Origin: an uncultured virus (IMG/VR IMGVR_UViG_3300024270_000031) | Lineage: Duplodnaviria; Heunggongvirae; Uroviricota; Caudoviricetes | IMG/VR virus record: IMGVR_UViG_3300024270_000031 | Coordinates: 115,442-135,441 of that record | Length of the DNA: 20,000 bases | Direction: 5' to 3' (one strand) | Shown: positions 2,740 to 18,504 of the stretch, piece by piece | Position numbering within the stretch: position 1 is the first letter of the stretch | How the letters are laid out: each line of letters opens with the position of its first letter | Notes under the pieces: generated by a model | What the model saw: the letters and a program-made list of their open reading frames with translations, nothing else | The model's database searches: none | Told to the model about the DNA's origin: nothing | Made by a program: the position numbers and the translations under genes

Positions 2740-2780
2740 AAAAAGAACGAGTATAAAAAGTATTCGTTCTTTTTCTTTTT
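2740..2780 (+). terminator. Rho-independent terminator
   Basis: AAAAAGAACGAGTA...TATTCGTTCTTTTT followed by CTTTTT. Confidence 0.8.
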
Positions 2781-2972: not shown

Positions 2973-2981
2973 GCTAAATTA
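2973..2981 (+). promoter_or_regulatory. Class III promoter motif GCTAAATTA
   Basis: Recurrent intergenic 9-mer upstream of the HD-domain gene. Confidence 0.55.
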
Positions 2982-3111
2982 ATTGAATGGGAAAAAGGAT
3001 TGGCATAGTTAGACTCAAATCTAATATAACCTATTTAAATAGCTAACTACTTGCTTCTGAGGCTTGCTTCCTTGGAAGCTTTTAATCTATATAGAAAGGC
3101 AGCAAGAAAAG

Positions 3112-3657
3112 ATGAATATGAATTTTATTAATGCTCTTCATGCTCTTAGCGCTATAGCAGAGGGCGGAGCGGATTATCAGAAAGAATATCAAGAGTATAT
3201 AGAAGCACATAAAGAAAGAGTAAAGAAGTTTGCTTCCTGGCTAGAAGAAAATTGTCCTGAAGTTTTCGAGGGCGTCGACCTCGATGCTTTCCATGAAGTT
3301 ATTAATGAACACGATGAGTCTAAATTCTCGGAAGAAGAGTTCGAGCCTTACGCTCAGAAGTGGTATGGCAACGGAGAGAAGACCTTCGAGTATGAGGAAG
3401 CATGGAAGCATCACTGGATGAACAATGAGCATCACCCTGAATTCTGGCTGGGAGAAGACATGCCTTATATCTATATTCTTGAGATGCTCTGCGACTGGGG
3501 TTCCTTCTCTATAGATAAGGGAGACCTAAAAGAACTTTCTGATTTTTATTATAATAAAGCTATGGACGACCCGGAGAAGAATCTTTCTGATGCTACTAAA
3601 GAAATAATCCAAGATGTTCTTTCTCATATAGAGTCCGCGGCAGAAAGAGAGGAATAA
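3112..3657 (+). CDS. DUF5662-like HD-superfamily metal-dependent hydrolase
   Basis: H..V, HDESKFSEEEF, AWKHH..N.HHPE.W and MP..Y..EMLCDW motifs. ATG 3112/3118 follows AGAAAGG. Confidence 0.75.
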   Translation: MNMNFINALHALSAIAEGGADYQKEYQEYIEAHKERVKKFASWLEENCPEVFEGVDLDAFHEVINEHDESKFSEEEFEPYAQKWYGNGEKTFEYEEAWKHHWMNNEHHPEFWLGEDMPYIYILEMLCDWGSFSIDKGDLKELSDFYYNKAMDDPEKNLSDATKEIIQDVLSHIESAAEREE

Positions 3658-3660
3658 CTT

Positions 3661-4776: not shown

Positions 4777-4783
4777 TAAATTT

Positions 4784-4812
4784 AAGGCCTCTTCACAGGG
4801 GCCTTTATTTTT
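4784..4812 (+). terminator. Rho-independent terminator
   Basis: AAGGCCTCT-tcac-AGGGGCCTT followed by TATTTTT. Confidence 0.8.
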
Positions 4813-4949
4813 ACAATTTGTTTTGGCGCGTTTTAAGCTACCTATTTCGCGTTTAAGACTGCAGACATATAAACACCAGGCCCCCTACCATAAAACTCGA
4901 TACAGAGAGAATAAGGAGCCCTGTCGTCGATGTTCTAGCCTTACCTACC

Positions 4950-5330
4950 TGTGCCCGGAAAATAATTTACAAAAAGTTTGCAAATATTTATTAAACTATT
5001 AAATTAATAAATTAATAGCTCGCCTCAATAAATAACATATTTTTCTGAAAATTTTTTAATAAATTGATAAATTACTAGATATTATACTGTATATTATTAT
5101 ATATAGATCTATAATAATAAATATTGTTTAGCTCTATAGGCCAACGGCCTAGCGGCTTGCCGCAATAGCTATATATTTTTCTCAAGATCTAAAATAAAAA
5201 TAAAAAATATATAAAAAAAATAAATATATCTATTATAGATATATAATATAACGCTGGAGTATTATATATATAGCGTTAGACGCGTGCGCGCGTGCTAATT
5301 ATTTTTCATAAAAAATTTATTTTTCGAATT
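4950..5330. other. Very AT-rich, palindrome-dense non-coding region (candidate replication origin)
   Basis: No credible ORF. Palindromes TATAGATCTATA, ATATATCTA-tta-TAGATATAT and TAACGCT...AGCGTTA; GC hairpins at 5137-5163; ACGCGTGCGCGCGT at about 5280. Confidence 0.45.
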
Positions 5331-5349
5331 TTAAGGAGTTTGATAGATT

Positions 5350-5655
5350 ATGTGTTCTAATACCACCCGTAAATCAGCTAGTTTTAAGTGCCCACATTGT
5401 GGTGCTCAATACCTTCCGGGAGAAATTTATATACCTGGTGCCTTGATCGGCCAGCCGGAAGATTTAGTAAAGGATTCTCTTGGTAAGATCATTTATGAAG
5501 ACTACCGAGAGGGAAAAGAACCCGACATGATTGAGCATTATATTTGTGATTACTGTGATAAACCCTTTGTAGTTGAAGCAACTATTACATATAAGACTAT
5601 GGCAGAAGCACCAGAGAAGGACTTTTCTACCCAATATGTCTCACTCTTAGACTAA
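5350..5655 (+). CDS. Zn-ribbon hypothetical protein
   Basis: CPHC and CDYC pairs; SD AAGGAG. Confidence 0.75.
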   Translation: MCSNTTRKSASFKCPHCGAQYLPGEIYIPGALIGQPEDLVKDSLGKIIYEDYREGKEPDMIEHYICDYCDKPFVVEATITYKTMAEAPEKDFSTQYVSLLD

Positions 5656-5668
5656 TTATACATATTTC

Positions 5669-5750
5669 AGGCTAAATTTAGTGCTAATTTGCACATTTTT
5701 GCGTTTTTTAGCACAAATTTAGCCTTTTCCTTACGCGTGCGCGTAAAGGC
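5669..5750. repeat. Two inverted repeats
   Basis: AGGCTAAATTTaGTGCTAA...TTAGCACAAATTTAGCCT (5669-5725) and TTACGCG-tg-CGCGTAA (5731-5746). Confidence 0.7.
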
Positions 5751-5753
5751 GTG

Positions 5754-5844
5754 CGTAACTTCCGAAATTACAAAAATCTCATTCTGTAACTTCTGTAATT
5801 TCGGTAATCTCATTTATTTCAAATACGTAACTTAGGAGATTTCG
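5754..5844. repeat. 31-bp tandem direct repeat containing overlapping YGWAAY-N7-RTTWCR palindromes (iteron/operator array)
   Basis: GTAACTTCCGAAATTACAAAAATCTCATTCT (5755) vs GTAACTTCTGTAATTTCGGTAATCTCATTTA (5786). Exact palindromes at 5754, 5785 and 5826; near matches at 5763, 5794 and 5803. Confidence 0.75.
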
Positions 5845-5846
5845 TT

Positions 5847-7574
5847 ATGATTAAGATTTACGAGATTTCTCCTCCACAGAAAATATCAGGCCTTAGTTCT
5901 CTTATAGTCCAATTCGACTATAATGAATACATAGTAGATTCTATTAAGACTATTCCTACTGCCCACTACCACAAGAAAGAAAAGGTTTGGGAGCTGCCTG
6001 TTTGTTATCTAGGTAGATTACTTGATAGCCTGACTTTCTTGGATGAGATACAACTACGATTACTTGATACACCGGAAAACGGTGAATTTCATTTTAATAA
6101 AAACTTTGACCTGGAGCCCTTGACCGAAATTGAGAAAGTTTCGTTCAAGATGAAACCATTCGAACATCAGCTCGAGGCTATTAACTTTGGGTTAGACAAA
6201 GAGAAGTGGCTACTCCTTGACTCTATGGGTCTAGGAAAGACTAACTCTATCATCTGGCTAGCAGAGACTCTTAAGAGGAGAGGGATAATCGATCACTGTT
6301 TCATTATCTGCGGAGTCAACTCCCTAAAGCAGAACTGGAAGAAAGAGATTCAGAAGTTCTCGACCGAGTCGGCTGTTGTACTAGGAGAGTACACTACTAG
6401 AACCGGAACTACTCGCTATAGGTCCATGGACAAGAGAGCTCAGCAACTCAAGGATCCAATAGAGGAGTTCTTCGTGATCACTAACTTAGAGTCACTCAGA
6501 GACGACCGGATCATCGAAGCTTTCAATAAGTCAGCTAATAAGTTTGGGATGATTGCTTTCGATGAAGCTCATAAGGCAGCGACTAAAACTTCTCAGCAGG
6601 GAACTAACCTACTTAAGCTTGAAGCTCCCTTTAAGATCGCCGCTACCGGAACCCTGATAACTAATAATCCCCTCTCGGCCTATGTCCCTCTCTCGTGGAC
6701 CGGGAATGATAACTCTATTCTGACTAACTATAAATCTCAGTACTGTAATTTCGGAGGTTTCAAAAACAACCAAGTTATAGGATTCAAGAATCTTGAGGTT
6801 CTACAGGAAGTTATTAAGTCGTGTTCACTTAGAAGAACTCTAGACCAAGTTAGATCAGACATGCCGCCGAAGACAGTAACCCTGGAACTTCTAGAGCCGG
6901 AAGATGATCAGCGTAAGTTCTATGAAGCAATCAAAGAAGGAGTCAAGGAAGAAGCCGATAAGATCGAACTTAAGACCTCGAGTCTCCTTGCTCTCACTAC
7001 TAGACTTAGACAAGCTTCAGCCTGCCCGAGTATCCTGACTACTCAGCCGGTTAGTTCATGTAAAGTGGATCGCTGTCTAGAGCTGATCCAAGAACTTACT
7101 TCTCAAGGAGAGAAAGTTGTGGTACTCTCTGTCTTTAAAGAAACTCTAAATGAGCTTGCAGCGAAACTCGGGGAATTTCGTTTTAGTATAAATACTGGAG
7201 ATATCCCGGATCCGGTAGTCGCTAACAACGTTGCTAGATTCCAGGATGATCCTAAGGAGCAAGTCTTTATAGGAACTTGGGGTAAAGTCGGAACTGGCTG
7301 GACCTTGAACTCTTCTTCTTACCTCATATGTCTAGATACACCTTATACAGCAGCAATGTTCGACCAGGGCACAGATAGAATCTGGAGAGTTAATAACACT
7401 CGACCCGCTTTCATTACTGTGCTCATGTGTAAGGATACAATAGACGAGAGGGTTCAGCAGATCATAGAGACTAAGAAAGAACTAGGAGAGTATCTCGTAG
7501 ATGGAGTCGAATTTAATAACACCAATAACTACAAGCTTGACGACGAACTCAGAGCAATCCTTCGAGATCTCTAA
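5847..7574 (+). CDS. SNF2-family (SF2) helicase/ATPase with N-terminal HARP-like domain
   Basis: Motif I DSMGLGKT, motif II FDEAH, motif III ATGT..N and motif VI QGTDRIWR. The N-terminal F.YN..IVDSIKTIP...YH...KVWELP resembles HARP. Confidence 0.9.
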   Translation: MIKIYEISPPQKISGLSSLIVQFDYNEYIVDSIKTIPTAHYHKKEKVWELPVCYLGRLLDSLTFLDEIQLRLLDTPENGEFHFNKNFDLEPLTEIEKVSFKMKPFEHQLEAINFGLDKEKWLLLDSMGLGKTNSIIWLAETLKRRGIIDHCFIICGVNSLKQNWKKEIQKFSTESAVVLGEYTTRTGTTRYRSMDKRAQQLKDPIEEFFVITNLESLRDDRIIEAFNKSANKFGMIAFDEAHKAATKTSQQGTNLLKLEAPFKIAATGTLITNNPLSAYVPLSWTGNDNSILTNYKSQYCNFGGFKNNQVIGFKNLEVLQEVIKSCSLRRTLDQVRSDMPPKTVTLELLEPEDDQRKFYEAIKEGVKEEADKIELKTSSLLALTTRLRQASACPSILTTQPVSSCKVDRCLELIQELTSQGEKVVVLSVFKETLNELAAKLGEFRFSINTGDIPDPVVANNVARFQDDPKEQVFIGTWGKVGTGWTLNSSSYLICLDTPYTAAMFDQGTDRIWRVNNTRPAFITVLMCKDTIDERVQQIIETKKELGEYLVDGVEFNNTNNYKLDDELRAILRDL

Positions 7575-7968
7575 GGAAGCCAGGGAACTCGGATTAGTAG
7601 TTCGCTACGATACTATAGAGTACAGAGGGGAAACTGTGAACTTCCTCTCTGATCCTCCCGGTCATCAGTGTTTCGCTCAGTGGAGAGGGAAGCTGGTAGA
7701 TCTAGGATTAAACAATATCTACTACAAAGAAGATATGTGTAAGTTTGTGGATCGAGAACTCGACCTTATAACTGACTTCCGTAATTGTCCGGATTTCGCC
7801 GGCGCGAAATTAGAGTATTTTCATAACGGCGACTTTAGAGATATTAGACTCTGCTACAAAGGTCGGATACTTAAAGTCTTCTTAGTCGCCGGCGAAGTGA
7901 ACGAAACTTTCCTAATTTCGGAATCAACCCGGATTCTTAGAACGCCGGGAATTATTGACGAAACTTGA
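7501..7968 (+). CDS. Hypothetical protein
   Basis: 155-aa ORF filling the gap after the helicase, with AGGAG upstream. The start is uncertain because of a 74-nt overlap. Confidence 0.65.
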   Translation: MESNLITPITTSLTTNSEQSFEISKEARELGLVVRYDTIEYRGETVNFLSDPPGHQCFAQWRGKLVDLGLNNIYYKEDMCKFVDRELDLITDFRNCPDFAGAKLEYFHNGDFRDIRLCYKGRILKVFLVAGEVNETFLISESTRILRTPGIIDET

Positions 7969-7980
7969 TCAATTTCGTTT

Positions 7981-7989
7981 GCTAAATTA
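7981..7989 (+). promoter_or_regulatory. Class III promoter motif GCTAAATTA
   Basis: TTTGCTAAATTATACG is identical to 1529-1544. Confidence 0.6.
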
Positions 7990-8021
7990 TACGATTGAAT
8001 TTTTGTAAGGAGAATTACATA

Positions 8022-9203
8022 ATGGTAACATACATTTATTTTGTAAAGTGCCCTAACTGTGAAGATGAGCACTTTGATTTCTTTGATGATGCTAAAGCTT
8101 TCGCAAGAGGTTGCATGAGTAAGAAACCTATTATCACTCAGACTGAGGTAGAGAGAAATGACTTTGGTGAGTGTACTGACTCTTCTGATCTCGGAACTAT
8201 CTGGTCTTGGGAAGATGAGATGGAAGAACCCGAAGCAGAACCTGAAACTAAGTTCTCTAAAGATGACGTTGTGAGTGACTACGACCCAGACACTGACCCT
8301 GAATTCGCAGATGACGATTTTTTTGCTGTTAATGACGACTTATACGAAAGTGCCGAAATTTCGTTTACTAATAATGCCGACAGAGATGAGTTTTTTAAGC
8401 TTTGTTCCGAAATTGGTATAGTTACAGGTGCGGACCTTAAGAAGTTTATGGATGAGTTTGGTGCAGATGACAGCAATATTCTTGCTAAGCTTAGAGAGTA
8501 CAGAGCAGAACTCGGAGATGACTTTAAGATCGAGGAGTGCCAAAGAAAGCCGATTCCTGAGGGAATGACTATTGAGCAGTTAGTAGAGACCATGCAAGAG
8601 AACGAGGACATGGTTGAGTGTGCTGGTTGTGAAGAGCTCTTTCCTAAGGACGAGTGTTTCCATAAAGATGATATTGGCTGGCTCTGTGGTGATTGCGAAG
8701 ACAGAATAGTTAAGTGCACTTGGTGCGAAGAACTTTATGATAAAAGTGAGTGTCGTTATGAAGTAGACCTTGGATGGCTCTGCAGTAGATGCGAAGCTGC
8801 TATTAAGTCGAGAGGTGAAACTCTTACTTTCCGAGAGGGAAACTATTGGGATTTCCTTGACGAAGATGTAGAGGAACTTCATGACCTTGGAAATACTTAC
8901 GATGGTGGTTATCCTGAAACTCGTACTTGGATGTGCTATCTTAATGGTAATGACCTTGGTACAGTAGAAGCTACTACTGAAGAAGAAGCTTATCTTAAGA
9001 TGGAACAGACTTGGCCAGAATATAGATACAATAACGAAGATGTCCAGGTAATTCCGGTAGATGAGCTTGAGGAGAGCACTTCTAAAGTGGATACTCTTGA
9101 AGAAGCTACAGATTACAGAAAGCGTTTGACTGCTTGCCCTGAATGTGGCAGTGAGTCATACGATGCTGAAACACGTTTCTGCCTTAAGTGCGGATTTAAT
9201 TAA
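8022..9203 (+). CDS. Acidic multi-module protein with several CxxC Zn fingers and LxE linkers
   Basis: SD AAGGAG 8007-8012 then ATG 8022. CPNC, CAGC/CGDC, CTWC/CSRC and CPEC/CLKC pairs. DDLYES, FKIEE, FLDE, ELEES and TLEEA lie between modules. Confidence 0.75.
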   Translation: MVTYIYFVKCPNCEDEHFDFFDDAKAFARGCMSKKPIITQTEVERNDFGECTDSSDLGTIWSWEDEMEEPEAEPETKFSKDDVVSDYDPDTDPEFADDDFFAVNDDLYESAEISFTNNADRDEFFKLCSEIGIVTGADLKKFMDEFGADDSNILAKLREYRAELGDDFKIEECQRKPIPEGMTIEQLVETMQENEDMVECAGCEELFPKDECFHKDDIGWLCGDCEDRIVKCTWCEELYDKSECRYEVDLGWLCSRCEAAIKSRGETLTFREGNYWDFLDEDVEELHDLGNTYDGGYPETRTWMCYLNGNDLGTVEATTEEEAYLKMEQTWPEYRYNNEDVQVIPVDELEESTSKVDTLEEATDYRKRLTACPECGSESYDAETRFCLKCGFN

Positions 9204-9316
9204 GTTTAAACTGAATAACTAATAAGTCTCAGGTTAGAAATTCATTTTAATATATCGTATATTATGAGAGGACTTAATATACGAAAATAAATAAACTAAT
9301 AGGATGGTAATTTAAA

Positions 9317-9829
9317 ATGAAGAAAGATAATCAGAACATTGAAAATGTTGCGAAGGATACCAAGCTTGGCTACTCCTTCTATTCCAGATTGCTCGGCAAG
9401 CCTTTCGATACAGTAGAAGAGCTTGCTGCAGCAGAAACTGCTTACTATGATAAGCTCAGAGCTAAGGATGAGAAAGCCGCTGCTAAGAAAGCAGATGCTC
9501 AGAAAGTAGAGGATGCTTTTAAAGCTCTCAACGCAGCTCGTAGAGATTATAAGAGTAAGCTTAATCAGCTTACGGAAGAGTTCAGTGAAGCACTCGCAGA
9601 CCTTAAGAAAGCTTACGAGCTTGGTAAGGCTGACATCCATAACACTCTCGCTGCCGCAGAGAAAGCTTATGATGATGCGCTCAGAACCTTTACCGAAAAG
9701 TATCCTGAAGGATATCACCTTACTCTTAAGGATGGCGATTTCGAAACGACTATTAGTAGTCAGACCACGAAGAATACTTTTGATAATAAGAATCTCGCGG
9801 ATATCTTCAGCCTGCTGTTTAATATTTAA
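9317..9829 (+). CDS. Coiled-coil hypothetical protein
   Basis: Ala/Lys/Glu-rich helical 170-aa ORF with phage-like codon usage. Confidence 0.8.
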   Translation: MKKDNQNIENVAKDTKLGYSFYSRLLGKPFDTVEELAAAETAYYDKLRAKDEKAAAKKADAQKVEDAFKALNAARRDYKSKLNQLTEEFSEALADLKKAYELGKADIHNTLAAAEKAYDDALRTFTEKYPEGYHLTLKDGDFETTISSQTTKNTFDNKNLADIFSLLFNI

Positions 9830-9894
9830 GTATACATAAAAAATTACTGAGACAATTTAAAAATTTCGATTTTTTATTGTATTATATAATATAA

Positions 9895-9970
9895 GATGAA
9901 AATCTTGTAGACAAGTTTCCTCCTTTGTTAAACGCCTTGATGATTCCTCCGATCAAGGCGTTTTTATTTT
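9895..9970 (+). ncRNA. Candidate small RNA with two anti-SD (UUCCUCC) elements and a terminator
   Basis: Class II promoter motif at 9875. TTCCTCC at 9917-9923 and again in the loop of AAACGCCTTGAT-gattcctccg-ATCAAGGCGTTT, followed by a T tract. Confidence 0.5.
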
Positions 9971-9990
9971 ATTTAGTTATAGGATGTATT

Positions 9991-10368
9991 ATGCAAACAA
10001 CAGAAGCACAACAGCTTTTATCAGAAATATTTGAACGAGCCGAAAAAGAACAGATTACAGAATTTCAGCTTATTACTTCTTGGGATGCTTTTATAGGCTG
10101 CTGGAAATTCCATAAAGCAACTAAGTTAATTATTAACGCTCTTAAAGATTCTTCTGCAACCTTATTTAAGGAGTACTGTAGTGAGGTAGCTACCGGATCT
10201 GCTGTAGTAGAAAAGCTTCTTGCTTATAATAGACTGCAGAACGTTATTGAGTTCTATGAGAGAGATCTTGCGGTATTACGAAGTATGCTGGATGAGTACG
10301 ATGAATATCTTGGGAATGGCCACTTCTGGTATTCTTTCTTAGGAGGCGAGAGGGACTTATGGAACTAA
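9991..10368 (+). CDS. Hypothetical protein
   Basis: ATG 9991 follows AGGATG; the longer TTG start in the ORF track runs through a terminator hairpin. Confidence 0.75.
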   Translation: MQTTEAQQLLSEIFERAEKEQITEFQLITSWDAFIGCWKFHKATKLIINALKDSSATLFKEYCSEVATGSAVVEKLLAYNRLQNVIEFYERDLAVLRSMLDEYDEYLGNGHFWYSFLGGERDLWN

Positions 10369-10577
10369 CTACTCTATTTCAGACTTATGCTGAGCTTGAG
10401 AACCCGCCGGTAATTGAACTACTTAATATCCGGAAAGAACCGGTTGGAGCTATCTATTTAGATAAGTTTAAGTATAAGAATTTCGTAGTATCCGAAACGA
10501 ATAACTCTGAGAAGTACTATCTTTATGTCGATGGACTCGGAATTTATTTCTCTTTTTATCAAAAAATAACACCGTAA
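10359..10577 (+). CDS. Hypothetical protein
   Basis: 72-aa ORF, SD GAGGG, overlapping the previous stop. Confidence 0.7.
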   Translation: MELTTLFQTYAELENPPVIELLNIRKEPVGAIYLDKFKYKNFVVSETNNSEKYYLYVDGLGIYFSFYQKITP

Positions 10578-10595
10578 TTATCGTATAATATTATA

Positions 10596-10692
10596 GGTGA
10601 TTGCGAGTATGTGGTGTTCATTGGCATCAGGGGCGATGAGGTAAAACTCGTCGTCCCGCTCCTTTTATAGGGTAAAATTGACCCTGTAATCA
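10596..10692 (+). ncRNA. Candidate multi-branch structured RNA upstream of nrdD
   Basis: Five compatible helices rich in G-U pairs, starting right after a class II promoter motif at 10579. Confidence 0.5.
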
Positions 10693-10701
10693 GCTAAATT
10701 A
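10693..10701 (+). promoter_or_regulatory. Class III promoter motif GCTAAATTA
   Basis: Upstream of nrdD, followed by an AGAGT-TTCG-GCTCT tetraloop hairpin. Confidence 0.5.
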
Positions 10702-10751
10702 AATACAGAGTTTCGGCTCTTAGACATAAAAATTAAGGAAAGGTATTGATT

Positions 10752-12956
10752 ATGCAAAGAGTTATTAAGCGTGATGGCAGAGAAGTCGAATTCGATAAGT
10801 CTAAGATTATCAAGGCAATTTCTCAGGCTAATCAGGAAGTTATTAAATCAAAGCAGATTGGTCCTAGAAAGATTGATCAGCTTGCAACTATTGTAGAAGA
10901 GAAGTGTAAAGTATATAAGAGGGCAATTAAAGTCGAGGACATTAATGACCTGATCGAAGACGAACTCATCTCCCGAAATTACAACAATCTCGTTCGTGCA
11001 TTTATTAAATATAGATACAATAAGGAGCTTGTTAGAAAGTCAAACACTACCGATGATTCGATCTTGAGTTTGATTAACCTCGCAAATGAGGAACTCAAGC
11101 AGGAGAACGCGAACAAGAATCCTGTAGTTAATTCTACGCAGAGAGATTACATGGCAGGAGAAACTAGTAAGGATATTACCAGAAGACTTCTTCTTCCTAA
11201 GGATGTAGTCAAGGCTCATGATGATGGTACTATTCACTTCCATGACTCAGATTACTTCATTCAGAAGATGCATAACTGTGATTTAGTTAATCTCGAAGAT
11301 ATGCTTCAGAACGGAACCGTAATTTCCGGTACTCTAGTTGAGAAGCCTCATAGTTTTGCTACCGCTTGTAATATTGCGACACAGATCATCGCACAAGTAA
11401 GTAGTAACCAGTATGGCGGTCAGTCAATCACCCTCTCACATCTTGCTCCTTTCGTAGACGTCTCTAGGCGTAAGATTATGGATGAAGTAAGAGCTGAATT
11501 CGATATGGTAGGTTTCGATACAGAAGCTGAAGCCGAAATTGCTGCAATTACAGAAAAGCGTGTAAGAGCAGAAGTAAAGCGCGGCGTTCAGACTATCCAG
11601 TATCAGGTTAATACCCTGCTCACTACAAATGGTCAAGCCCCTTTCATCACTGTGTTTATGTATCTCAATGAAGTAGAAGATGAGCGGACTAAGAAAGATC
11701 TTGCGATGGTTATCGAAGAAGTTCTTCGTCAGAGAACTGAGGGCATCAAGAATGAGAAAGGCGTCTGGGTTTCCCCCGCGTTCCCAAAACTTGTATATGT
11801 TCTAGAAGAAGATAACGTGTATCCTAATTCCGAGTACTGGTATCTTACTAAGCTTGCAGCAAAGTGTACTGCTAAGCGACTTGTTCCGGATTACATTAGT
11901 GAGAAGATCATGAAGGAACTCAAGGAAGGCGGATGCTTCGCTCCTATGGGTTGTAGATCCTGTCTCTCTCCTTGGTATGATGAGAATGGTAAACAGAAGT
12001 GGTACGGCCGCTTTAATAAGGGTGTAGTCACCGTCAACTTAGTTGATGTCGCGTGTGGATCCGATGGTGCGAACTACTCGAAGGATCTTAGTAGCTTCTG
12101 GAAGAACTTCGATGAAGTACTTGAGCTCTGTCATAAAGCCCTGCTCTGCCGCTACGAAAGACTCAAGGGTACAGTAAGCGACGTCGCTCCCATCCTCTGG
12201 CAGCATGGTGCTATCGCTAGACTTAAGAAAGGTGAGACTATCGATAAGCTTCTTACTGGCGGATACTCGACTATCTCACTTGGATACGCTGGTTTGTGGG
12301 AATGTGTGGTAGAACTTATTGGTAAGGACCTTCTAACCGAAGAAGGCCAGGAACTCGGACTCGAGATCATGCGATACATGAACAAGAAGTGCGATGAGTG
12401 GAACAAGGAACTCTATCTCGGCTTCGGAATCTACGGAACCCCTCTTGAGAGCACTACTTACAAGTTTGCTAAGTGCTTGCAGAAGCGCTGGGGCGAAATT
12501 CCCGGAGTTACAGATAAGAACTATATTACTAATAGTTATCATGTTCATGTAACTAAAGAGATAGATCCTTTCGAAAAGCTTGCGGTAGAAGCGAAGTTCC
12601 AGAGACTTTCTTCCGGCGGTGCAATCAGCTACATCGAAAGTGCGAACCTAGAGAATAACCTCGAAGCAGTACTTACAGTAATCCAGTATATCTACGATAA
12701 CATCATGTATGCGGAACTCAACATTAAGTCAGACTACTGTCAGGAGTGTGGCTGGGATCGTGAGATCATGATCGTAGAAGATGAGTCGGGTAAGCTTGTC
12801 TGGGAGTGTCCTAACTGTGGTAACAGAGACCAAAGCAAGATGAATGTTGCTAGAAGAACTTGTGGCTACATCGGAACTCAGTTCTTTAACCAAGGCAGAA
12901 CTGCAGAGATTAAAGACCGCTTCGTTCATATGGACTGTCATGAGTGTGGGTGCTAA
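10752..12956 (+). CDS. nrdD: Anaerobic (class III) ribonucleoside-triphosphate reductase with ATP cone
   Basis: N-terminal VIKRDG ATP cone, HFHD, QYGGQS, TPLEST, CQEC/CPNC Zn site and the glycyl-radical motif RRTCGYIG. Confidence 0.97.
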   Translation: MQRVIKRDGREVEFDKSKIIKAISQANQEVIKSKQIGPRKIDQLATIVEEKCKVYKRAIKVEDINDLIEDELISRNYNNLVRAFIKYRYNKELVRKSNTTDDSILSLINLANEELKQENANKNPVVNSTQRDYMAGETSKDITRRLLLPKDVVKAHDDGTIHFHDSDYFIQKMHNCDLVNLEDMLQNGTVISGTLVEKPHSFATACNIATQIIAQVSSNQYGGQSITLSHLAPFVDVSRRKIMDEVRAEFDMVGFDTEAEAEIAAITEKRVRAEVKRGVQTIQYQVNTLLTTNGQAPFITVFMYLNEVEDERTKKDLAMVIEEVLRQRTEGIKNEKGVWVSPAFPKLVYVLEEDNVYPNSEYWYLTKLAAKCTAKRLVPDYISEKIMKELKEGGCFAPMGCRSCLSPWYDENGKQKWYGRFNKGVVTVNLVDVACGSDGANYSKDLSSFWKNFDEVLELCHKALLCRYERLKGTVSDVAPILWQHGAIARLKKGETIDKLLTGGYSTISLGYAGLWECVVELIGKDLLTEEGQELGLEIMRYMNKKCDEWNKELYLGFGIYGTPLESTTYKFAKCLQKRWGEIPGVTDKNYITNSYHVHVTKEIDPFEKLAVEAKFQRLSSGGAISYIESANLENNLEAVLTVIQYIYDNIMYAELNIKSDYCQECGWDREIMIVEDESGKLVWECPNCGNRDQSKMNVARRTCGYIGTQFFNQGRTAEIKDRFVHMDCHECGC

Positions 12957-13444
12957 TGAATTATAGTCAGATTAGAAGTTTAGATATTGCTAATGGCCCT
13001 GGCTGCCGGATCAGTCTCTTCGTTAGTGGCTGCGAGCACAGATGTAAGAACTGCTTTAACCCGGAAACTTGGAACTTTGATCATGGCAAGGAGTTTACTG
13101 AGGATATTTTAACTAGTATCCTCAAACTCGCTAAGCCGGATCATATTAGCGGACTGAGTATTCTTGGTGGAGAACCCTTGCACCCTAGGAACCTTGCTGA
13201 GGTATGTCGACTTGCCAGAAGATTTAAGGAAGTGTATCCGGATAAAACTGTTTGGCTTTGGACCGGCTACTTGTTAGAAGAAGTATTAGAGGGTCTAGTA
13301 GATTCCGGAATCGATGTAGTAGTCGACGGTAGATTCGTAGAAGAACTAAAAGACCTTAGACTGAAATATCGCGGATCTTCGAACCAAAGAATTATCGACC
13401 TAAAAGAAACTCTCCGAACCGGCGACCTTATATTATATGAATAA
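12956..13444 (+). CDS. nrdG: Anaerobic RNR activating radical-SAM enzyme
   Basis: DIANGPG.R.SLFVSGCEHRCKNCFN, GGEP and RGSSNQR motifs; TAATG coupling with nrdD. Confidence 0.95.
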   Translation: MNYSQIRSLDIANGPGCRISLFVSGCEHRCKNCFNPETWNFDHGKEFTEDILTSILKLAKPDHISGLSILGGEPLHPRNLAEVCRLARRFKEVYPDKTVWLWTGYLLEEVLEGLVDSGIDVVVDGRFVEELKDLRLKYRGSSNQRIIDLKETLRTGDLILYE

Positions 13445-13450
13445 AAAGAT

Positions 13451-13515
13451 TAACGTTTGTTATTATTGACGAAACCCTATATTTCGTTTATATTAACAAA
13501 CGTTATTTTTATTTT
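13451..13515 (+). terminator. Long hairpin terminator
   Basis: TAACGTTTGTTA...GACGAAA-ccctata-TTTCGTT...TAACAAACGTTA followed by TTTTTATTTT. Confidence 0.7.
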
Positions 13516-13563
13516 GCACAAAAGCACACAGAAAAATTATTGAAACTTTGTTGGTTTTGTCGG

Positions 13564-13592
13564 TTTACAAATCGCGCGAAACGTGATATAAT
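13564..13592 (+). promoter_or_regulatory. SigmaA-type early promoter
   Basis: TTTACA-17 nt-TATAAT with extended TGn; flanks conserved with 15280 and 18443. Confidence 0.85.
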
Positions 13593-13624
13593 ATTAATGT
13601 AAGAAAACAACGGAGGAAATTAAA

Positions 13625-13876
13625 ATGAGTAAATTTAATGTTGGTGACATTATCAAAGCAAAGCCCGAGTGGCTCGGACCTCGTGAGACTGGTGAGGAGA
13701 GATACCTCGTTCTCGAAGACAGAGGCAATAAAACTTTAGTTGCCTACATCGATGTGAATCATGTATTCTCTTTCGGCAGCACTCATGTCTACGCAGACGA
13801 GTGGATGGAACTTGATCCCAATCCATCAAATGAAGTTCTCATGACGATTATGGATATGACCAATGGAAAGATGTGA
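13625..13876 (+). CDS. Hypothetical early protein
   Basis: Strong SD GGAGG; FNVGDII N-terminus is common in small phage proteins. Confidence 0.8.
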   Translation: MSKFNVGDIIKAKPEWLGPRETGEERYLVLEDRGNKTLVAYIDVNHVFSFGSTHVYADEWMELDPNPSNEVLMTIMDMTNGKM

Positions 13877-13888
13877 GGAGGAAAACAG

Positions 13889-14071
13889 ATGAGACAAAGA
13901 ACGCATGAAGTCAGAGCTAAGAAGCCTGACAACATTATTCGCTTTACGATCGATGTTGCTTCAGTTCCTAACCCTGATAGAAAGTTTAGCCGGCTAAAGA
14001 ACAAAGCTCAGGTCTTTGACGACCGCCGAAAGAGAAAGCCTAAGTATAAACCCAATTACATGGAGGACTAA
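13889..14071 (+). CDS. Small basic hypothetical protein
   Basis: SD GGAGG; 60 aa, K/R-rich C-terminus. Confidence 0.7.
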   Translation: MRQRTHEVRAKKPDNIIRFTIDVASVPNPDRKFSRLKNKAQVFDDRRKRKPKYKPNYMED

Positions 14072-14074
14072 AAT

Positions 14075-14374
14075 ATGATTACATATAAGATTCATCAGAT
14101 TAAGGACATCGCAAATACTGACTATGCTTTCAGAGGTTATGATCCTAAGAAGTTTAATTTCAAGGATTACGAGTGCCTCGGAGAGGGAGAGTTCGATGCA
14201 GAAGCAAAGACTGCTACCGAGATTTGTGATATTATCTTTCATGTATTTAACATGAGAATGCCGGCAGACTTTAAGGGACACTCTTTATCAGTGAGCGACG
14301 TGATTGAGCTTAAGACTGATATTACCACAAGCTTTTATTATTGTGATATTGTTGGTTGGGTGCGCATCAAATAA
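14075..14374 (+). CDS. YodL-like domain protein
   Basis: YKIHQIK..YAF...DY....GE....IF..FN...PADFKGHSLSVSDVIEL matches the YodL family signature. Confidence 0.85.
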   Translation: MITYKIHQIKDIANTDYAFRGYDPKKFNFKDYECLGEGEFDAEAKTATEICDIIFHVFNMRMPADFKGHSLSVSDVIELKTDITTSFYYCDIVGWVRIK

Positions 14375-14422
14375 TTATTAACAATTTATTTACAGTCTGT
14401 TAGCACATTATCTGACAAAATA

Positions 14423-14431
14423 TGTTATAAT
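14423..14431 (+). promoter_or_regulatory. Extended -10 early promoter
   Basis: TGTTATAAT with CAAAATA upstream and ATGTAAGAAAA downstream, as in the other early promoters; the -35 is weak. Confidence 0.6.
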
Positions 14432-14466
14432 ATAAATGTAAGAAAAATTTAAGAGAGGTACATATT

Positions 14467-15054
14467 ATGAACGTAAAAGAATTGTTTGAGAATGAAGAGC
14501 TTATGGATTCTATCGTAGAGGACATCGAGGATATTCCTGAAGACTCTGAAGTAACTTACGAAGTATGGGCACTCGGCTACAATGATGAGGACGAGCCTAC
14601 CGATACCGAAGTTCTTGTTGGAGAGTTTGTTAACCCTGATGAAGCCGTCGCTTGTGCAGAGAAAGTTACTGTAGTAGCACTCGATGAGATCGGTTATGAG
14701 AAACTTGATAAGTCTACTATGTACTTCTCTATTGAAGTTGAAACTGTAGTGGCTGATCCTGACGATGAAGGTACTATAAATATTGGTACTATCTATTCGA
14801 GAGACCTTTGGATTGATGATGAGTACGGTCCCGACTATGAAGAGAATATAGTAGCTCTTGCTGATGAAGATTATGAACTCCTCGATGATGGCACTCTTAA
14901 GATTCCCTGCAAACTGCTAAGAGACTTCAATAAGAATGATCTTATTGGAATCGACTTTGTTAAAGAAGTCAACAAGGCTATTCTCTTCTATAAGATTATT
15001 TCGAAGGTTACTTACGCTGACGGCAACTATTACCACTGCGAACTTATTATTTAA
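14467..15054 (+). CDS. Highly acidic hypothetical protein
   Basis: 195 aa, D/E-rich, SD GAGAGG. Confidence 0.8.
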   Translation: MNVKELFENEELMDSIVEDIEDIPEDSEVTYEVWALGYNDEDEPTDTEVLVGEFVNPDEAVACAEKVTVVALDEIGYEKLDKSTMYFSIEVETVVADPDDEGTINIGTIYSRDLWIDDEYGPDYEENIVALADEDYELLDDGTLKIPCKLLRDFNKNDLIGIDFVKEVNKAILFYKIISKVTYADGNYYHCELII

Positions 15055-15057
15055 GGG

Positions 15058-15086
15058 TTTACAAAACTCTTCATTTATTATATAAT
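15058..15086 (+). promoter_or_regulatory. SigmaA-type promoter with no downstream ORF
   Basis: TTTACA (15058-63), 17 nt, TATAAT (15081-86). Confidence 0.7.
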
Positions 15087-15091
15087 AGACT

Positions 15092-15230
15092 TGTATCCTA
15101 AATACACAACCATTAAAGCCAAACGTTTTTCCGTAGACTCATAGGGAAGAGCATTATAATATTTTTATTCTAATTGCCTAACTTCTATAAACCTTCTTAA
15201 TCGGCTCTTCCTTATGGTGTCTCTACATAT
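15092..15230 (+). ncRNA. Candidate early small RNA (long stem, 51-nt AU-rich loop)
   Basis: CATAGGGAAGAGC (15140-52) pairs with GCTCTTCCTTATG (15204-16), extended by GTAGAC/GTCTCTAC; it has its own promoter. Confidence 0.5.
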
Positions 15231-15279
15231 TGCACAGAAATAAATAAAATAATTTTGAAAACTTCGGTTGTTTTGTCAG

Positions 15280-15308
15280 TTTACAAATCGACCTTTTTGT
15301 GATATAAT
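15280..15308 (+). promoter_or_regulatory. SigmaA-type early promoter
   Basis: TTTACA-17 nt-TATAAT with extended TG. Confidence 0.85.
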
Positions 15309-15347
15309 ATATACGTAAGAAACACTGATACTTTGGAGGAAAGTAAA

Positions 15348-15644
15348 ATGGAAAAACTTTATATTGTTTGTTGGGGCTCGGCTGGACAGGACGATGTTGG
15401 AAACTCTAAAGCTTTTTGCGGAGTTCACGGAGTTTATACTTCTAAGTCTGACGCTCTCAAAGGTCTTGTAGAGTGTAAGGATGTCTGCTATGACGAGGTT
15501 GTTCAGTCCGATGACCATGTGGAGCTTGAGTACAACATGTCTCGTACCAGAGTCTATGGTTCCGAGGCTGAAGAGTACTTCGAGATTGATTGGGACTTTG
15601 CAGATGTGACCAACGAAATCTATATTACTATTGCTGAGCACTGA
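15348..15644 (+). CDS. Acidic hypothetical protein
   Basis: SD GGAGG 15335-39 then ATG 15348. Confidence 0.8.
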   Translation: MEKLYIVCWGSAGQDDVGNSKAFCGVHGVYTSKSDALKGLVECKDVCYDEVVQSDDHVELEYNMSRTRVYGSEAEEYFEIDWDFADVTNEIYITIAEH

Positions 15645-15657
15645 GGAGGACTACATA

Positions 15658-16386
15658 ATGTTTTACCAGACTGGAATTGATATTACAAACGATAAGCAAA
15701 TGTTCAATTTTCTTAAGGACCACTTCAGATACCCTACTATGAACTCTTGGAACGGAGTTTATTCTATTGCAAACAACGTAAAGGTACATAGACTTAATCT
15801 CAGCGGAGACTGCTGGACTGCTCTTAATCTTCTTAATAACGGAGAGTACGAAGTACTTAACGATATAATCAGAGAATGGGAGAGGGAGCATCCCGGTTAC
15901 GTTGTCGGCTTCAATGGAAGAAGCGGTGGTTATCTTGTTCTTTATAACAAAGACGACCGTGGTGATGTTCTTCCTTGCTCTATAACTGATAATGATGATT
16001 ATTCTCAGTATAAGGAATGGTGTCGTTATTACGGATATACGGTAAAAGAAAACCGCTTTGAGCTTCAGATGTTTACTAAGCTCGTTCGTGAGTTCGATAA
16101 ACTTTGTGATGAACTCAGAGCTTTCTGTGATTGGCTGTCTCAGCTTAAGTTCGAAGTTATCGAGATGGATAAAGCTGTCGAAGACTTCAACTATATTTAT
16201 GCTGACGACCTCGAGTACCTCGGCTTTGCTGAGCTCTCTTGCACGGATGAGGGTAAGGTAGACTGCTCTGAGATTCGTCAACTTGCTTGCTTGATGGAAG
16301 CTTTTATTAAGCTTGCAGACCGTTCTGACTCTGGGTATTCTATTACCTGTGATGATAACGGAATAACGTATTATGAGCATTACTAA
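15658..16386 (+). CDS. Conserved phage/MGE hypothetical protein (HFRY.TMNSWN ... GFNGRSGGYLVLY)
   Basis: SD GAGGAGG then ATG 15658. The motifs look familiar from Firmicute MGEs, but I cannot assign a function. Confidence 0.8.
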   Translation: MFYQTGIDITNDKQMFNFLKDHFRYPTMNSWNGVYSIANNVKVHRLNLSGDCWTALNLLNNGEYEVLNDIIREWEREHPGYVVGFNGRSGGYLVLYNKDDRGDVLPCSITDNDDYSQYKEWCRYYGYTVKENRFELQMFTKLVREFDKLCDELRAFCDWLSQLKFEVIEMDKAVEDFNYIYADDLEYLGFAELSCTDEGKVDCSEIRQLACLMEAFIKLADRSDSGYSITCDDNGITYYEHY

Positions 16387-16421
16387 TTTGTGAATAGTTT
16401 GTAAACATATGCCAAAAGGGG

Positions 16422-16450
16422 TTTACTTTTGTCACAAAATGTGTTATAAT
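16422..16450 (+). promoter_or_regulatory. SigmaA-type early promoter
   Basis: TTTACT-17 nt-TATAAT with extended TG. Confidence 0.8.
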
Positions 16451-16483
16451 GTATTATACGAAAGATAAACGGAGGATATACAT

Positions 16484-17344
16484 ATGCTAAATGATACTAA
16501 GAAAGATTTGATTGAGCAGGCCCGCAAACTTGTAAAGCCCTATGAGCAGTATTCTATCGACGAACTTGCCGATGCTTACTGCGACGCAACTGACACTGGT
16601 AATGAACAGCTGAAGAACATTTATATCTCGGCACTTATTCTTCGCTTCTGGTATAAGATTGATAAGATGTACAGAGAGAATACTGTTGCACCTTGTCTCG
16701 AGTACGAAGATTTCTTCTGGTGGCTCTATGAAGCAATCGAGTACGCTTGTAAGTACAGAGGCTGGAGAGACGAGACTAAGAAACTTAATGCACAGCAGTG
16801 TATCAATAAGTGTATTGATACTATTAAGCTTCAGAAGTACTATGATCTCAGGCTTGATAAGAAGAAGGCTGTAAACTACTGCACTAGTATGGACGCTCCG
16901 ATTGCCGGTGATTCTGATGATGAGGCAAAGACTCTCGGTGATATGCTTGAGGATGAAGACGACTGCTTCGACACTAGTGCTGATGACGTTATGATGCTGG
17001 TTCAGAACTATATCAATCGTAATAAAATCATTGAAGCTATCTTAATTGATAATATTGCTTTCAATGACGTACAGCGACACTCTAAAAGAACTATTAAGAC
17101 CACTAATGCCGACGGTGAGACTTATAGATATACTGAGCACAGCTCAGAGTTCTGGCCCTATAAGCTGGTTCAGATTGTAAGTAAGCTTCCGGCTACATAT
17201 AAGAGTTCTTTTATGAGACGTTATCACATTTCAGAAGAGAAACTTACTACGGTTCTCGATGCGATTGAGAGAGCTAACAATCAGAAGCTTTATAAGTACC
17301 TTAAGAGTTGTCTTGCTGAGCTTAAGGTAAGTTATGCGCTGTAA
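16484..17344 (+). CDS. Divergent phage sigma70-like factor
   Basis: Region-2-like EYEDFFWWLYEAIEYACKY and a region-3.2-like sigma finger SMDAPIAGDSDDEAKTLGDMLED. Confidence 0.6.
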   Translation: MLNDTKKDLIEQARKLVKPYEQYSIDELADAYCDATDTGNEQLKNIYISALILRFWYKIDKMYRENTVAPCLEYEDFFWWLYEAIEYACKYRGWRDETKKLNAQQCINKCIDTIKLQKYYDLRLDKKKAVNYCTSMDAPIAGDSDDEAKTLGDMLEDEDDCFDTSADDVMMLVQNYINRNKIIEAILIDNIAFNDVQRHSKRTIKTTNADGETYRYTEHSSEFWPYKLVQIVSKLPATYKSSFMRRYHISEEKLTTVLDAIERANNQKLYKYLKSCLAELKVSYAL

Positions 17345-17350
17345 AACTCT

Positions 17351-17376
17351 AGGCCGGCTTAAAACCCCGGCCTTTT
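17351..17376 (+). terminator. Rho-independent terminator
   Basis: AGGCCGG-cttaaaacc-CCGGCCT followed by TTT. Confidence 0.7.
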
Positions 17377-17396
17377 ATATTGTATAATATAATAAA
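17377..17396 (+). promoter_or_regulatory. Class II promoter-like motif
   Basis: Identical to 1040-1059. Confidence 0.6.
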
Positions 17397-17421
17397 AAAC
17401 GAAACTCGGAGGATTTCAATT

Positions 17422-18120
17422 TTGTATCTGGATTTATTTGACGAACTAAGATTAAATAAAAGACTTGTGAAGATTGCCGGCTTTGAGGTCGCAGCTTACT
17501 GGGCCGAGCTTCAGAGTATTCTTAAGCAGGTCGTAAAGAAACAAACTATGGATGAGAAAGGATTCTTCCCTCTCGATAGAGACTATGTAGAGAGGGAGAC
17601 TACTTTGACTACTGCTAAGCAACTTAAGTGTGATGAAAAGCTTCTCAGTCTCGGAGTACTTCTTAAAGACCCGGAAGATCCTAATAAGATTGCTATCGCA
17701 GTAAACGGAATGGTTGCGGTGATCACAGACGAGGATACTACTAAGCTTAAGAAGACTGGTAAAACTTCTGCAGACGCTCGGGCAGCGAAGGTTGCCGGGA
17801 TTAAAGCGACTATGAAGAAAGCTATCTTAGAAGACGACTTAGAACTTCGCGCCGCTTACGAACGCTGGATCGACGGAATGATCGACGCGCAGAACTGTAA
17901 GTTTACTAAAGCAGTAGTGCAGGTATTTGAGAAGACGGTTACCGGATACACTACGGACAAAGCCCTGCGACTTAAGATCATTGAGATTGCTACTACTAAT
18001 AGTTATAAGGACGCTACTTGGGCAATCAACAGGATCTACAACCCCGGAAAGTTTACTTCGCCGGCTACTAAACTTCCTGAGCAGAAGATTTGCACCGGCG
18101 TTTCTAACGATGTATTTTAA
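17422..18120 (+). CDS. Putative wHTH replication initiator / replisome organiser
   Basis: TTG 17422 follows GGAGG. NKRLVKIAG.EVAAYWAEL...KGFF.LDRDYVERETTLTTAKQ....KL..LGVL resembles phage initiator N-terminal wHTH domains. Confidence 0.6.
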   Translation: MYLDLFDELRLNKRLVKIAGFEVAAYWAELQSILKQVVKKQTMDEKGFFPLDRDYVERETTLTTAKQLKCDEKLLSLGVLLKDPEDPNKIAIAVNGMVAVITDEDTTKLKKTGKTSADARAAKVAGIKATMKKAILEDDLELRAAYERWIDGMIDAQNCKFTKAVVQVFEKTVTGYTTDKALRLKIIEIATTNSYKDATWAINRIYNPGKFTSPATKLPEQKICTGVSNDVF

Positions 18121-18411: not shown

Positions 18412-18442
18412 AAAATTTCCGAAACTTCATCTATTTTGTCAG

Positions 18443-18471
18443 TTTACAAATCCTCAAAAATATGTTATAAT
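18443..18471 (+). promoter_or_regulatory. SigmaA-type early promoter
   Basis: TTTACA-17 nt-TATAAT with extended TG. Confidence 0.85.
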
Positions 18472-18504
18472 ATATACGTAAGTAAAACTTAGGAGGATTA
18501 AAGA

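Follow-up and report, generated by a model that had tools for sequence, protein, structure and literature searches.

A 19-bp palindrome, YGWAAY-N7-RTTWCR, recurs in one region of the genome of an uncultured Caudoviricetes virus (IMG/VR record IMGVR_UViG_3300024270_000031). The analysis presented here indicates that these palindromes are DNA sites for a two-fold symmetric protein and that they are under selection inside genes. The reader of the sites is most likely a phage protein, for which a ribbon-helix-helix (RHH) protein is our candidate. The interpretation that we prefer, with a confidence slightly short of even, is that the palindromes are operators through which this RHH protein, produced late in infection, silences the early region of the phage. 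The DNA analysed, hereafter the window, comprises 20,000 nt and lies at the very end of a virus record of 135,441 bases (G000); positions are counted within the window, and the virus records or genomes and the metagenome loci compared with G000 carry G and L labels, respectively.

A clustered palindrome with a fixed spacer

A pattern scan of the window retrieved the following matches.

Exact 19-bp sites (13): 5754, 5785, 5826, 6125, 6744, 7162, 7780, 7902, 7959, 8408, 11534, 12494, 17400
One-mismatch sites (12): 5763, 5794, 5803, 7805, 8345, 10974, 13541, 18420, 1381, 10041, 10685, 14153

All 13 exact coordinates listed in a preliminary description of this DNA were right, and the scan bore out its placing of 10 of them within 5754-8426. 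Its eight one-mismatch sites were also recovered, the list being short by the last four given above; two of the eight (13541 and 18420) had been taken as members of the motif and turned out to be mostly part of a different promoter element. The exact sites together span 11.7 kb and the rest of the 135,441-base contig holds no exact match. Across the nulls used, 0.1-0.6 exact sites were expected by chance. Half-site counts predict 0.55 exact sites in the whole contig compared with the 13 found, and a second-order Markov null of the window gave a mean of 0.125 and a maximum of 2 in 200 runs, in line with the earlier estimate of well below one chance match per 20 kb. The spacer proved to be specific, since each of the other spacers between 0 and 20 gave 0 or 1 exact match in the window, none being enriched, and 0-3 over the whole contig. 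Eight sites are wholly intragenic, against a mean of 0.50 (maximum 3 of 1000) after recoding with the codon usage of the genome and of 0.48 (maximum 4 of 1000) under synonymous shuffling; the enrichment over codon-preserving shuffles proposed as a check is therefore present. Because all 13 exact sites have T at position 7 and either A or G at position 13, the unit of the motif is 7-5-7, YGWAAYT-N5-RRTTWCR, a refinement of the initial 6-7-6 description.

The palindromes are selected as DNA sites

Three genes of the window were used to examine the intragenic copies.

5847..7574, plus strand: SNF2-family helicase with an N-terminal HARP-like stretch; intragenic sites 6125, 6744 and 7162
7501 (or 7537)..7968, plus strand: open reading frame (ORF) 2, an acidic tandem beta-beta-beta-beta-alpha protein of no known family; sites 7780, 7805 and 7902 inside, 7959 across the stop codon
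10746..12956, plus strand: nrdD; exact sites 11534 and 12494, one-mismatch site 10974

When codons were aligned over about 80 relatives (29 for nrdD), fixation of third bases was higher inside the arms of the palindrome than outside for the 2-3-fold degenerate codons of the helicase gene (0.97 versus 0.69, n = 5 versus 165, P = 2e-4) and for ORF2 (0.90 versus 0.74, n = 7 versus 31, P = 0.007), and the few 4-6-fold degenerate codons of nrdD gave 0.83 in arms versus 0.62 elsewhere (P = 0.03). The synonymous-site conservation for which a test had been suggested at the intragenic copies is thus seen in all three genes, in a test that is partly circular, given that the positions were picked for carrying the motif. 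Degenerate arm positions swap between allowed bases only: an arginine codon shows A46/T19 at W, an asparagine codon C46/T24 at Y, and a serine codon A21/G50 versus T2/C2 at the R position. This restriction to permitted bases indicates that selection acts on the DNA word. Also, 38 of 44 relatives retain a decayed site at 6073 within the helicase gene, while turnover is evident elsewhere, relatives holding sites at new places and in non-homologous stretches.

The arms of the palindrome do not covary. In 370 distinct sites, pairing equals the expectation from column frequencies, with 195 Watson-Crick arm pairs observed versus 190 expected, 225 versus 226, 200 versus 187 and 243 versus 236 at the positions compared. 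The absence of covariation excludes an RNA hairpin acting as a translational operator, and the motif is consequently a DNA-binding site. Core sites of a recombinase were rejected as well, because the spacers all differ and no tyrosine integrase was found (Phage_integrase in 0 of 5 records, four of them at least 90% complete, with the control positive in 14 of 14 genomes).

Sites are confined to one genomic domain and one phage clade

A near-identical record of 220 kb (G001) contains 14 exact sites. In a genome of 233 kb (G002), 19 out of 19 exact sites fall inside the 28 kb between 83,984 and 112,422, and in G003 14 exact sites lie inside 62,500-90,936. Pooling seven genomes by distance from the helicase start, the density per 10 kb was 0 at -5 to -2 kb and 23.9 at -2 to 0 kb, followed by 10.7 at 0-2 kb, 8.6 at 2-5 kb, 1.4 at 5-10 kb, 2.6 at 10-20 kb, 1.0 at 20-30 kb and 0 at 30-40 kb. 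The left edge is sharp (0 sites at -5 to -2 kb versus 33 at -2 to 0 kb) and the thinning, which extends over ~25 kb, is one-sided.

Among the metagenome loci with ORF2, 79 of 80 hold sites under a relaxed pattern, which matched 534 times at spacer 7 versus 6-26 times at the other spacers from 3 to 12; 27 loci of distant helicases gave 9 relaxed matches in 438 kb. Distant members of the motif-bearing group carry the site variants TGAAATT, CGRAATC and YGAAAAY. In a helicase tree obtained by a quick IQ-TREE search, a careful search being unfinished, the 20 motif-bearing rows form one clade (Shimodaira-Hasegawa-like approximate likelihood-ratio test, 99), some of whose rows have few sites (L023 3, L253 3 and L256 1), and each of the 32 motif-free rows holds 0-2. 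The clade comprises ~220-kb myoviruses, large uncultured gut phages with a GC content of 28-52% that use genetic codes 11 and 4, and sister phages that share these codes and this range of GC are devoid of the motif. Since the sites follow a single phage clade over this range of GC content and two genetic codes, the protein that reads them is most likely encoded by the phage. No replacement palindrome came to light when motif-free loci and genomes were scanned de novo for dyads. A TAGG-N7-CCTA cluster in the motif-free G009 probably corresponds to tRNA arms, and G008 has 15 relaxed matches versus 2-7 at other spacers, but these are dispersed.

A clade-restricted ribbon-helix-helix protein is the candidate binder

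The preliminary description had suggested looking for RHH and ParB genes elsewhere in the genome. The first search found a 54-aa protein of the motif-bearing clade; the second was negative (ParB_N in 0 of 5 records, four of them at least 90% complete, with the control positive in 11 of 14 genomes). The elements relevant to this protein are as follows.

G000:C1:104340-104504, outside the window, 16.7 kb before the leader array: RHH gene, 54 aa, among tail genes
5754..5844: leader array, with exact sites 5754, 5785 and 5826 and one-mismatch sites 5763, 5794 and 5803 in a 9-bp register
16484..17344, plus strand: sigma-factor-like protein (PHROG 351, E 2.7e-6), whose promoter is without a strong site

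When all sense-strand ORFs of at least 38 aa were compared with six motif-bearing and seven motif-free genomes, several clade-restricted genes were obtained, the RHH gene being the one in a DNA-binding family. An orthologue is present in 5 of the 6 motif-bearing genomes, the sixth record beginning 1.8 kb before the helicase, and in none of the 7 motif-free ones. In a search of 35 records, the orthologue was also absent from the seven whose completeness is at least 90%; none of these has the motif around the helicase and three are new, which brings the motif-free total to 0 of 10. In the same search, three motif-free fragments gave weak generic matches (E about 1e-4), five motif-bearing fragments starting 2-9 kb before the helicase gave no RHH match, and the bin holding L233 and L234 gave two strong ones. 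A search with the RHH protein alone retrieved 38 loci. As a prospective test, we took seven new records found through the RHH protein: all four that include the helicase have a site cluster there, the helicase region accounting for 7 of 20 site matches in G019, 11 of 17 in G020, 20 of 30 in G021 and 6 listed of 9 in G024, and the three records without the helicase have 1-2 site matches.

The protein is basic (isoelectric point, pI, 9.6) and scores 21.8 bits with Pfam RHH_1, whose cut-off is 20.5. Its best PDB sequence matches are AvtR and a CopG-family protein, and the top Foldseek rows are all RHH proteins (CopG probability 0.94, E 0.45), none reaching E ≤ 0.001. A homodimer model scored 0.47 compared with 0.00 for the best control. 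The mark of this test is attained by 20 of 30 pairs of known structure and by 1 of 23 single chains, and the pass may stem from likeness to solved RHH dimers. Runs agreed in at least 95% of contacts, with a predicted local distance difference test value of 73, and in the model residues 13-17 pair with residues 13-18 of the partner in a ribbon-like manner. The ribbon residues Q14, T15 and E17 are nearly invariant over 24 orthologues.

The motif GCTAAATTA precedes the RHH gene in 27 out of 27 correctly read loci, one more row having been set aside for its wrong orientation. It occurs 31 times in sense versus once in antisense orientation and precedes structural and lysis genes, and we infer that it is a late promoter, for which the sigma-like protein encoded at 16484 is the candidate reader. 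Because the RHH gene sits among tail genes behind this phage-type promoter, its product would be made late.

The geometry of the sites resembles that of known RHH operators. In the accessible portion of PMC2724298, the operators of Arc (phage P22) and CopG (plasmid pMV158) are described as two 4-bp boxes 5 bp apart with a dyad on the central base, each box taking one dimer, and with cooperative extension into arrays of dimers. Here, the inner 13 bp read as box-N5-box (boxes at 4-7 and 13-16), and positions 4-7 are AATT in 427, AACT in 193 and AATC in 107 of 786 arms. The commonest spacing between neighbouring sites is 9 bp (48 cases), spacings of 25, 52 and 57 being largely fixed homologous pairs, and the helicase leader reads as 10-bp units in a 9-bp register with perfect units at 5763 and 5794. 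The palindromes match Arc/CopG operators both in their boxes and in their 9-bp arrays. AvtR, the closest viral RHH protein, comes from an archaeal virus and has eight sites in its own viral genome, according to the accessible text of PMC5569661. Unlike in these three systems, the phage described here has 14-25 sites over ~25 kb, many of them intragenic, and a candidate binder whose gene lies among tail genes.

Palindromes as putative operators of a late repressor

Several sites are placed over start regions or beside promoters at the following positions.

4780..5349: AT-rich intergenic element bounding the site field on its left; candidate for a major early promoter, an origin or both
Parts of this element: terminator-like hairpin 4784-4805; A/T repeats of 8-bp period at about 4982-5080; TATATA tracts; alternating purine-pyrimidine tract 5279-5294
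7959..7990, plus strand: exact site 7959-7977 followed by the phage-type promoter motif GCTAAATTA at 7981
8345..8426: one-mismatch site 8345 and exact site 8408, both within ORF 7995/8022-9203
10685..10703: one-mismatch site overlapping a phage-type promoter motif (10693) before nrdD
17400..17418: exact site between the extended -10 and the TTG start of the 17422 gene, covering its Shine-Dalgarno sequence
17422..18120, plus strand: initiator-like protein, 232 aa

Site 5826 likewise covers the Shine-Dalgarno sequence of the helicase gene, and of the eight close relatives examined, six retain site 17400. GGAG stands in the spacer of 90 out of 669 distinct site contexts, and in 47 of these a start codon lies within 8 nt; most other sites are mid-gene. 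Among 175 distinct promoter contexts, 33 have a site at about the 7959/7981 offset, and these are for the most part homologous to that one. The earlier proposal that the sites bind a dimeric phage protein is supported by their two-fold symmetry, by selection inside genes and by the tracking of a clade; the segregation or replication initiation attributed to that protein remain as rivals only, transcription control being favoured because many strong sites cover a ribosome-binding site or adjoin a promoter.

According to the repressor model, the host sigmaA would drive the early domain, and the phage sigma factor encoded at 16484 would then turn on the late genes together with that of the RHH protein. 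Two RHH dimers may occupy each site on AATT-like 4-bp boxes 5 bp apart, with a 9-bp period, and overlapping sites such as those before the helicase may hold three or more. The late RHH protein would in this way bind an early domain of ~25 kb that begins at the AT-rich element, covering the Shine-Dalgarno and start regions of the helicase and initiator-like genes and sitting beside promoters, while at mid-gene sites it could act as a roadblock inside the first operon. As a result, the onset of late expression would be followed by a lowering of early and replication-start functions. CopG represses an initiator gene (accessible portion of PMC2724298), and the 17400 site would do likewise here.

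A number of observations weigh against this model. Most sites are mid-gene, at a distance from any promoter, and pooled density peaks (23.9 per 10 kb) in the last 2 kb ahead of the helicase, around the AT-rich element; this suits an origin or DNA-end role equally. That the RHH protein is late is deduced only from the position of its promoter. The co-occurrence of RHH gene and motif amounts to a single evolutionary event, because all motif-bearing helicases form one clade, and other genes are also clade-restricted: those at 9925 and 14467 occur in 6 of 6 motif-bearing versus 0 of 7 motif-free genomes, and those at 10359 and 19111 in 5 of 6 versus 0 of 7. Most of these further genes encode acidic proteins and none belongs to a known DNA-binding family. 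RHH proteins usually autoregulate, and no site was found inside the RHH gene or within 300 bp upstream of it in 22 out of 22 loci; in this the gene also differs from Arc, CopG and AvtR. In the AlphaFold monomer, residues 8-16 come out as a helix of low confidence rather than as a strand, and the GAAAAY variants of G015 and G020 come without a clear matching change in the ribbon. The preference for C at position 9, which would make a perfect 10-bp palindrome, vanishes once Shine-Dalgarno sites are left out (182 versus 169, P = 0.52). Finally, the genome has a second RHH-like gene at G000:C1:76357-76539 (L005:4357-4539).

That second gene lies before topoisomerase I and is also found in G002, G004 and the motif-free L283; G004 has a third at about 55,051.

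A more speculative and rather unlikely variant is that the late 54-aa protein polymerises on a one-sided gradient of palindromes starting from an origin- or end-like AT-rich element, forming a structural coat of a lytic phage instead of exerting plain repression. Within this variant, the coat might mark the packaging start, organise or shield the first-entering DNA, or switch the mode of replication. An RHH-defined chromosome domain in phages is not described in the literature that we found.

Competing explanations

That the sites are part of the architecture of an origin is rather improbable too, at about the same level as the structural coat. They would frame an AT-rich origin and be bound by the RHH protein, in an accessory or replication-limiting role, or by the 17422 initiator, far sites serving for titration or loading. 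In many motif-bearing relatives, sites do stand to either side of the AT-rich element, which together with its 8-bp A/T repeats is retained even in a relative with 54% GC, and the motif-free L024, L030 and L034 have neither element nor sites. The 17422 protein resembles a replication initiator: it is basic (pI 9.0), its gene has a site over its own start and usually precedes that of a DnaC-like loader in motif-free relatives, and its Atlas neighbours are HTH_36 (0.95) and Phg_2220_C (0.94). Lambda O binds palindromic iterons. The preliminary description had named 17422 as a winged helix-turn-helix protein and possible binder. Pfam and the PDB did not bear out the label convincingly (none of 127 family members matched a DNA-binding Pfam family and the PDB gave nothing relevant), and the role of binder was rejected given that the gene is present in 6 of 7 motif-free genomes, its site being lost in 2 of 8 close relatives; 17422 is a target of a site rather than the best-supported binder. 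The same description spoke of a putative origin next to the cluster, which is not established, GC skew being positive throughout G000 and G002 with no switch to locate it. Moreover, an origin does not need sites 5-25 kb off on one side.

Marking of a DNA end, in which a late protein, the RHH protein, coats the packaging-start or first-entering DNA and positions the terminase or protects and organises the leading DNA, we regard as clearly unlikely. The sharp left edge and one-sided decay of the sites would fit, as would the place of the RHH gene among tail genes behind a late-type promoter, and neither Pfam nor PHROGs named a small terminase subunit. Against it, many strong sites lie over ribosome-binding sites and promoters, and the site field is far longer than known pac-recognition regions, which span a few hundred bp. 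A DNA end or terminal repeat at the AT-rich element was looked for in contigs only: two runs bridge 1467-6153 and depth has no consistent step.

It is very unlikely that the sites form the centromere of a plasmid-like carrier state, on which an RHH centromere-binding protein of the ParG, omega or ParR type would occupy dispersed sites near the origin. The RHH family of the candidate, the tandem arrays, the adjoining origin-like element and the lack of an integrase in 5 of 5 records are compatible with such a state. However, besides the missing ParB_N, no partition nucleoside triphosphatase (ParA, ParM or TubZ) was found among 269 ORFs compared with Pfam, a scan in which many ORFs had no family and which left four region-border ORFs outside, and the RHH gene has no such neighbour where it lies among tail genes.

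Binding by a host protein, a repressor or nucleoid factor of a Bacillota host, is similarly remote. HTH_3, the family of classical phage repressors, was found in 0 of 5 records (four of them at least 90% complete; control positive in 14 of 14), other helix-turn-helix families and serine integrases being covered by general ORF scans only, and sites occur beside sigmaA-type promoters. Yet the motif tracks a single phage clade across 28-52% GC and both genetic codes (11 and 4), and similar sister phages are without it. We know of no host box that matches the motif.

The least probable explanation is that ORF2 (7537-7968) or another clade-restricted gene, such as that of the basic 107-aa protein at 19111, encodes the binder: ORF2 tracked the motif at first, in 79 of 80 loci, and has a weak fold likeness to an AP2 tandem (Z 4.5, root-mean-square deviation, rmsd, 11, 105 aligned) and an integrase arm-binding domain (Z 4.3, rmsd 3.0, 56 aligned), but it is acidic (pI 4.9), had no fold match at E ≤ 0.001 (best Z 6.2), occurs in the motif-free G009 (93% complete) and is absent from the motif-bearing G014 (46% complete), and 19111 is absent from the motif-bearing G004 (91% complete). 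ORF 19427, clade-restricted by tblastn, was discarded when a profile found it in the motif-free G009.

Relation to known systems

The stoperators of Cluster A mycobacteriophages (L5, TipsytheTRex) offer a parallel to the repressor model: more than 20 copies of one repressor site lie at and away from promoters and are proposed to stop both initiation and elongation (accessible portion of PMC9283540). In that text they are asymmetric 13-mers, oriented with transcription and placed in short intergenic spaces, read by a monomeric helix-turn-helix immunity repressor of a temperate phage, whereas the present sites are symmetric 19-mers, often intragenic, in phages whose records yielded neither integrase nor HTH_3 repressor. 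The closest unexplained case is that of the 17-bp dyad repeats of Cluster O mycobacteriophages, which in the accessible part of PMC4351075 have many copies, a third of them in coding regions, in a phage that is not obviously temperate, their binder and function being given as unknown. They run genome-wide, mostly off promoters, whereas here we find one sharp-edged domain and a candidate binder. The sites of ParB (parS), Noc (NBS) and MatP (matS) are likewise palindromes within genes and confined to one chromosome region; the present motif differs from them in sequence, in the lack of ParB_N and in its one-sided decay from an AT-rich element. The system would work like a set of RHH operators spread in the manner of stoperators, yet it fails the definitions of both stoperators and parABS. 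No published account of this motif or of the clade-specific RHH protein was found in a search of main texts that covered subscription journals thinly.

Palindromes of the Cluster O type have been known in non-temperate phages for a decade without a binder or function; here, such sites are confined, selected over about 80 relatives and accompanied by a candidate that is small and easily purified, which makes the question of binding directly testable. If the repressor model is right, the sites would constitute an early-to-late shut-off switch, or else an organiser of a DNA end or origin, in a widespread clade of large gut phages, and RHH proteins would act over tens of kilobases rather than at one operator.

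Other features of the window

Three further elements complete the map.

5350..5655, plus strand: zinc-ribbon protein, 101 aa, shared by relatives with and without the motif
5731..5756: second alternating purine-pyrimidine tract with a short inverted repeat, adjoining the site array
13541..13593, plus strand: weak look-alike just 5′ of the -35 of a sigmaA-type promoter (13564); the same arrangement at 18420/18443

GC content falls to 28% at 5001-5500. The alternating tracts (5279-5294 and 5731-5756), possibly Z-DNA, adjoin site clusters in most motif-bearing relatives, including one of 29% GC.

The weak sites before sigmaA-type -35 boxes were rejected as operators and treated as a separate element with its own consensus. 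In 35 distinct promoters of this class, the stretch upstream of the -35 has an invariant G where the palindrome is free, with the left arm in 13 of 35 and an exact site in 3 of 35. The family includes 13534-13600, 15250-15315 and 18413-18475, with further copies to about 27.8 kb of the G000/G001 composite, and its upstream element, AAAC-Y-Y-TG ... GTTTTG-TCAG, is a possible activator site.

A linker of the helicase (6073-6143), longer in the motif-bearing clade than in motif-free relatives, carries two conserved sites. Among the 2-kb bins of the genome, purine/pyrimidine alternation is lowest, and RRYY/YYRR 4-mers are most numerous, in the helicase gene (104 versus about 200). This anomaly is strongest in the G000 phage and L011 and absent in L016, L019 and L026, and is lineage-specific instead of general. 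The helicase of L035 contains an intein-like insertion (L035:10740-11400), and L256 and L265 have endonuclease-like insertions before or inside the gene.

The phage, its relatives and its host

The G000 record encodes a T4-type portal, prohead protease, major capsid and tail tube proteins, DNA polymerase A, clamp and clamp loader, DnaB, primase, a DnaC-like loader, gyrase, RecA, PFL and NrdDG, almost all genes being on one strand, and 25 tRNAs are called in its first 10 kb. G000 and G001 combine into a circle of about 222 kb, the part absent from G000 being taken from G001. No cultured close relative was found, the best helicase matches being about 35%. NrdD is Clostridia-like (56.5% to Butyrivibrio), and together with Shine-Dalgarno and sigmaA-type signals this suggests a Bacillota host; for the same reasons, the placement of two contigs in one Bacteroidales bin is probably mis-binning.

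TGA codons stand opposite tryptophan of the query in G004 (8), G005 (16) and L023 (3), with none in G002 and G006. Relatives that read TGA as tryptophan also include L026, L035, L222, L227, G007, G008 and G009, and G011, L029 and L033 have in-frame TAG, so that the family spans at least three codes. The likeness to the Jade clade of recoded gut phages, judging from the accessible part of bioRxiv 10.1101/2021.08.26.457843, is limited to size and to TGA recoding in relatives. An 89-nt tRNA-like gene of G000 (L001:1165-1253), with TCA in an unassigned anticodon loop, occurs in this code-11 phage and is a possible suppressor or selenocysteine tRNA.

In G001, L077:4149-7079 holds in a row a GmrSD_N plus HNH gene, an EcoRI-type methyltransferase and a MerR/excisionase-like gene; just 5′ of the first, at 30-32 kb of the composite, GC dinucleotides drop to 1 and 0 per kb versus about 40. 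In the motif-free G009, C1:100,000-140,000 shows opposite GC skew and gene direction, a large inversion that contains the ORF2 homologue. Finally, three near-identical records stop at 17477 and G001 resumes at 19883, probably as a result of assembly breaks from co-occurring strains.

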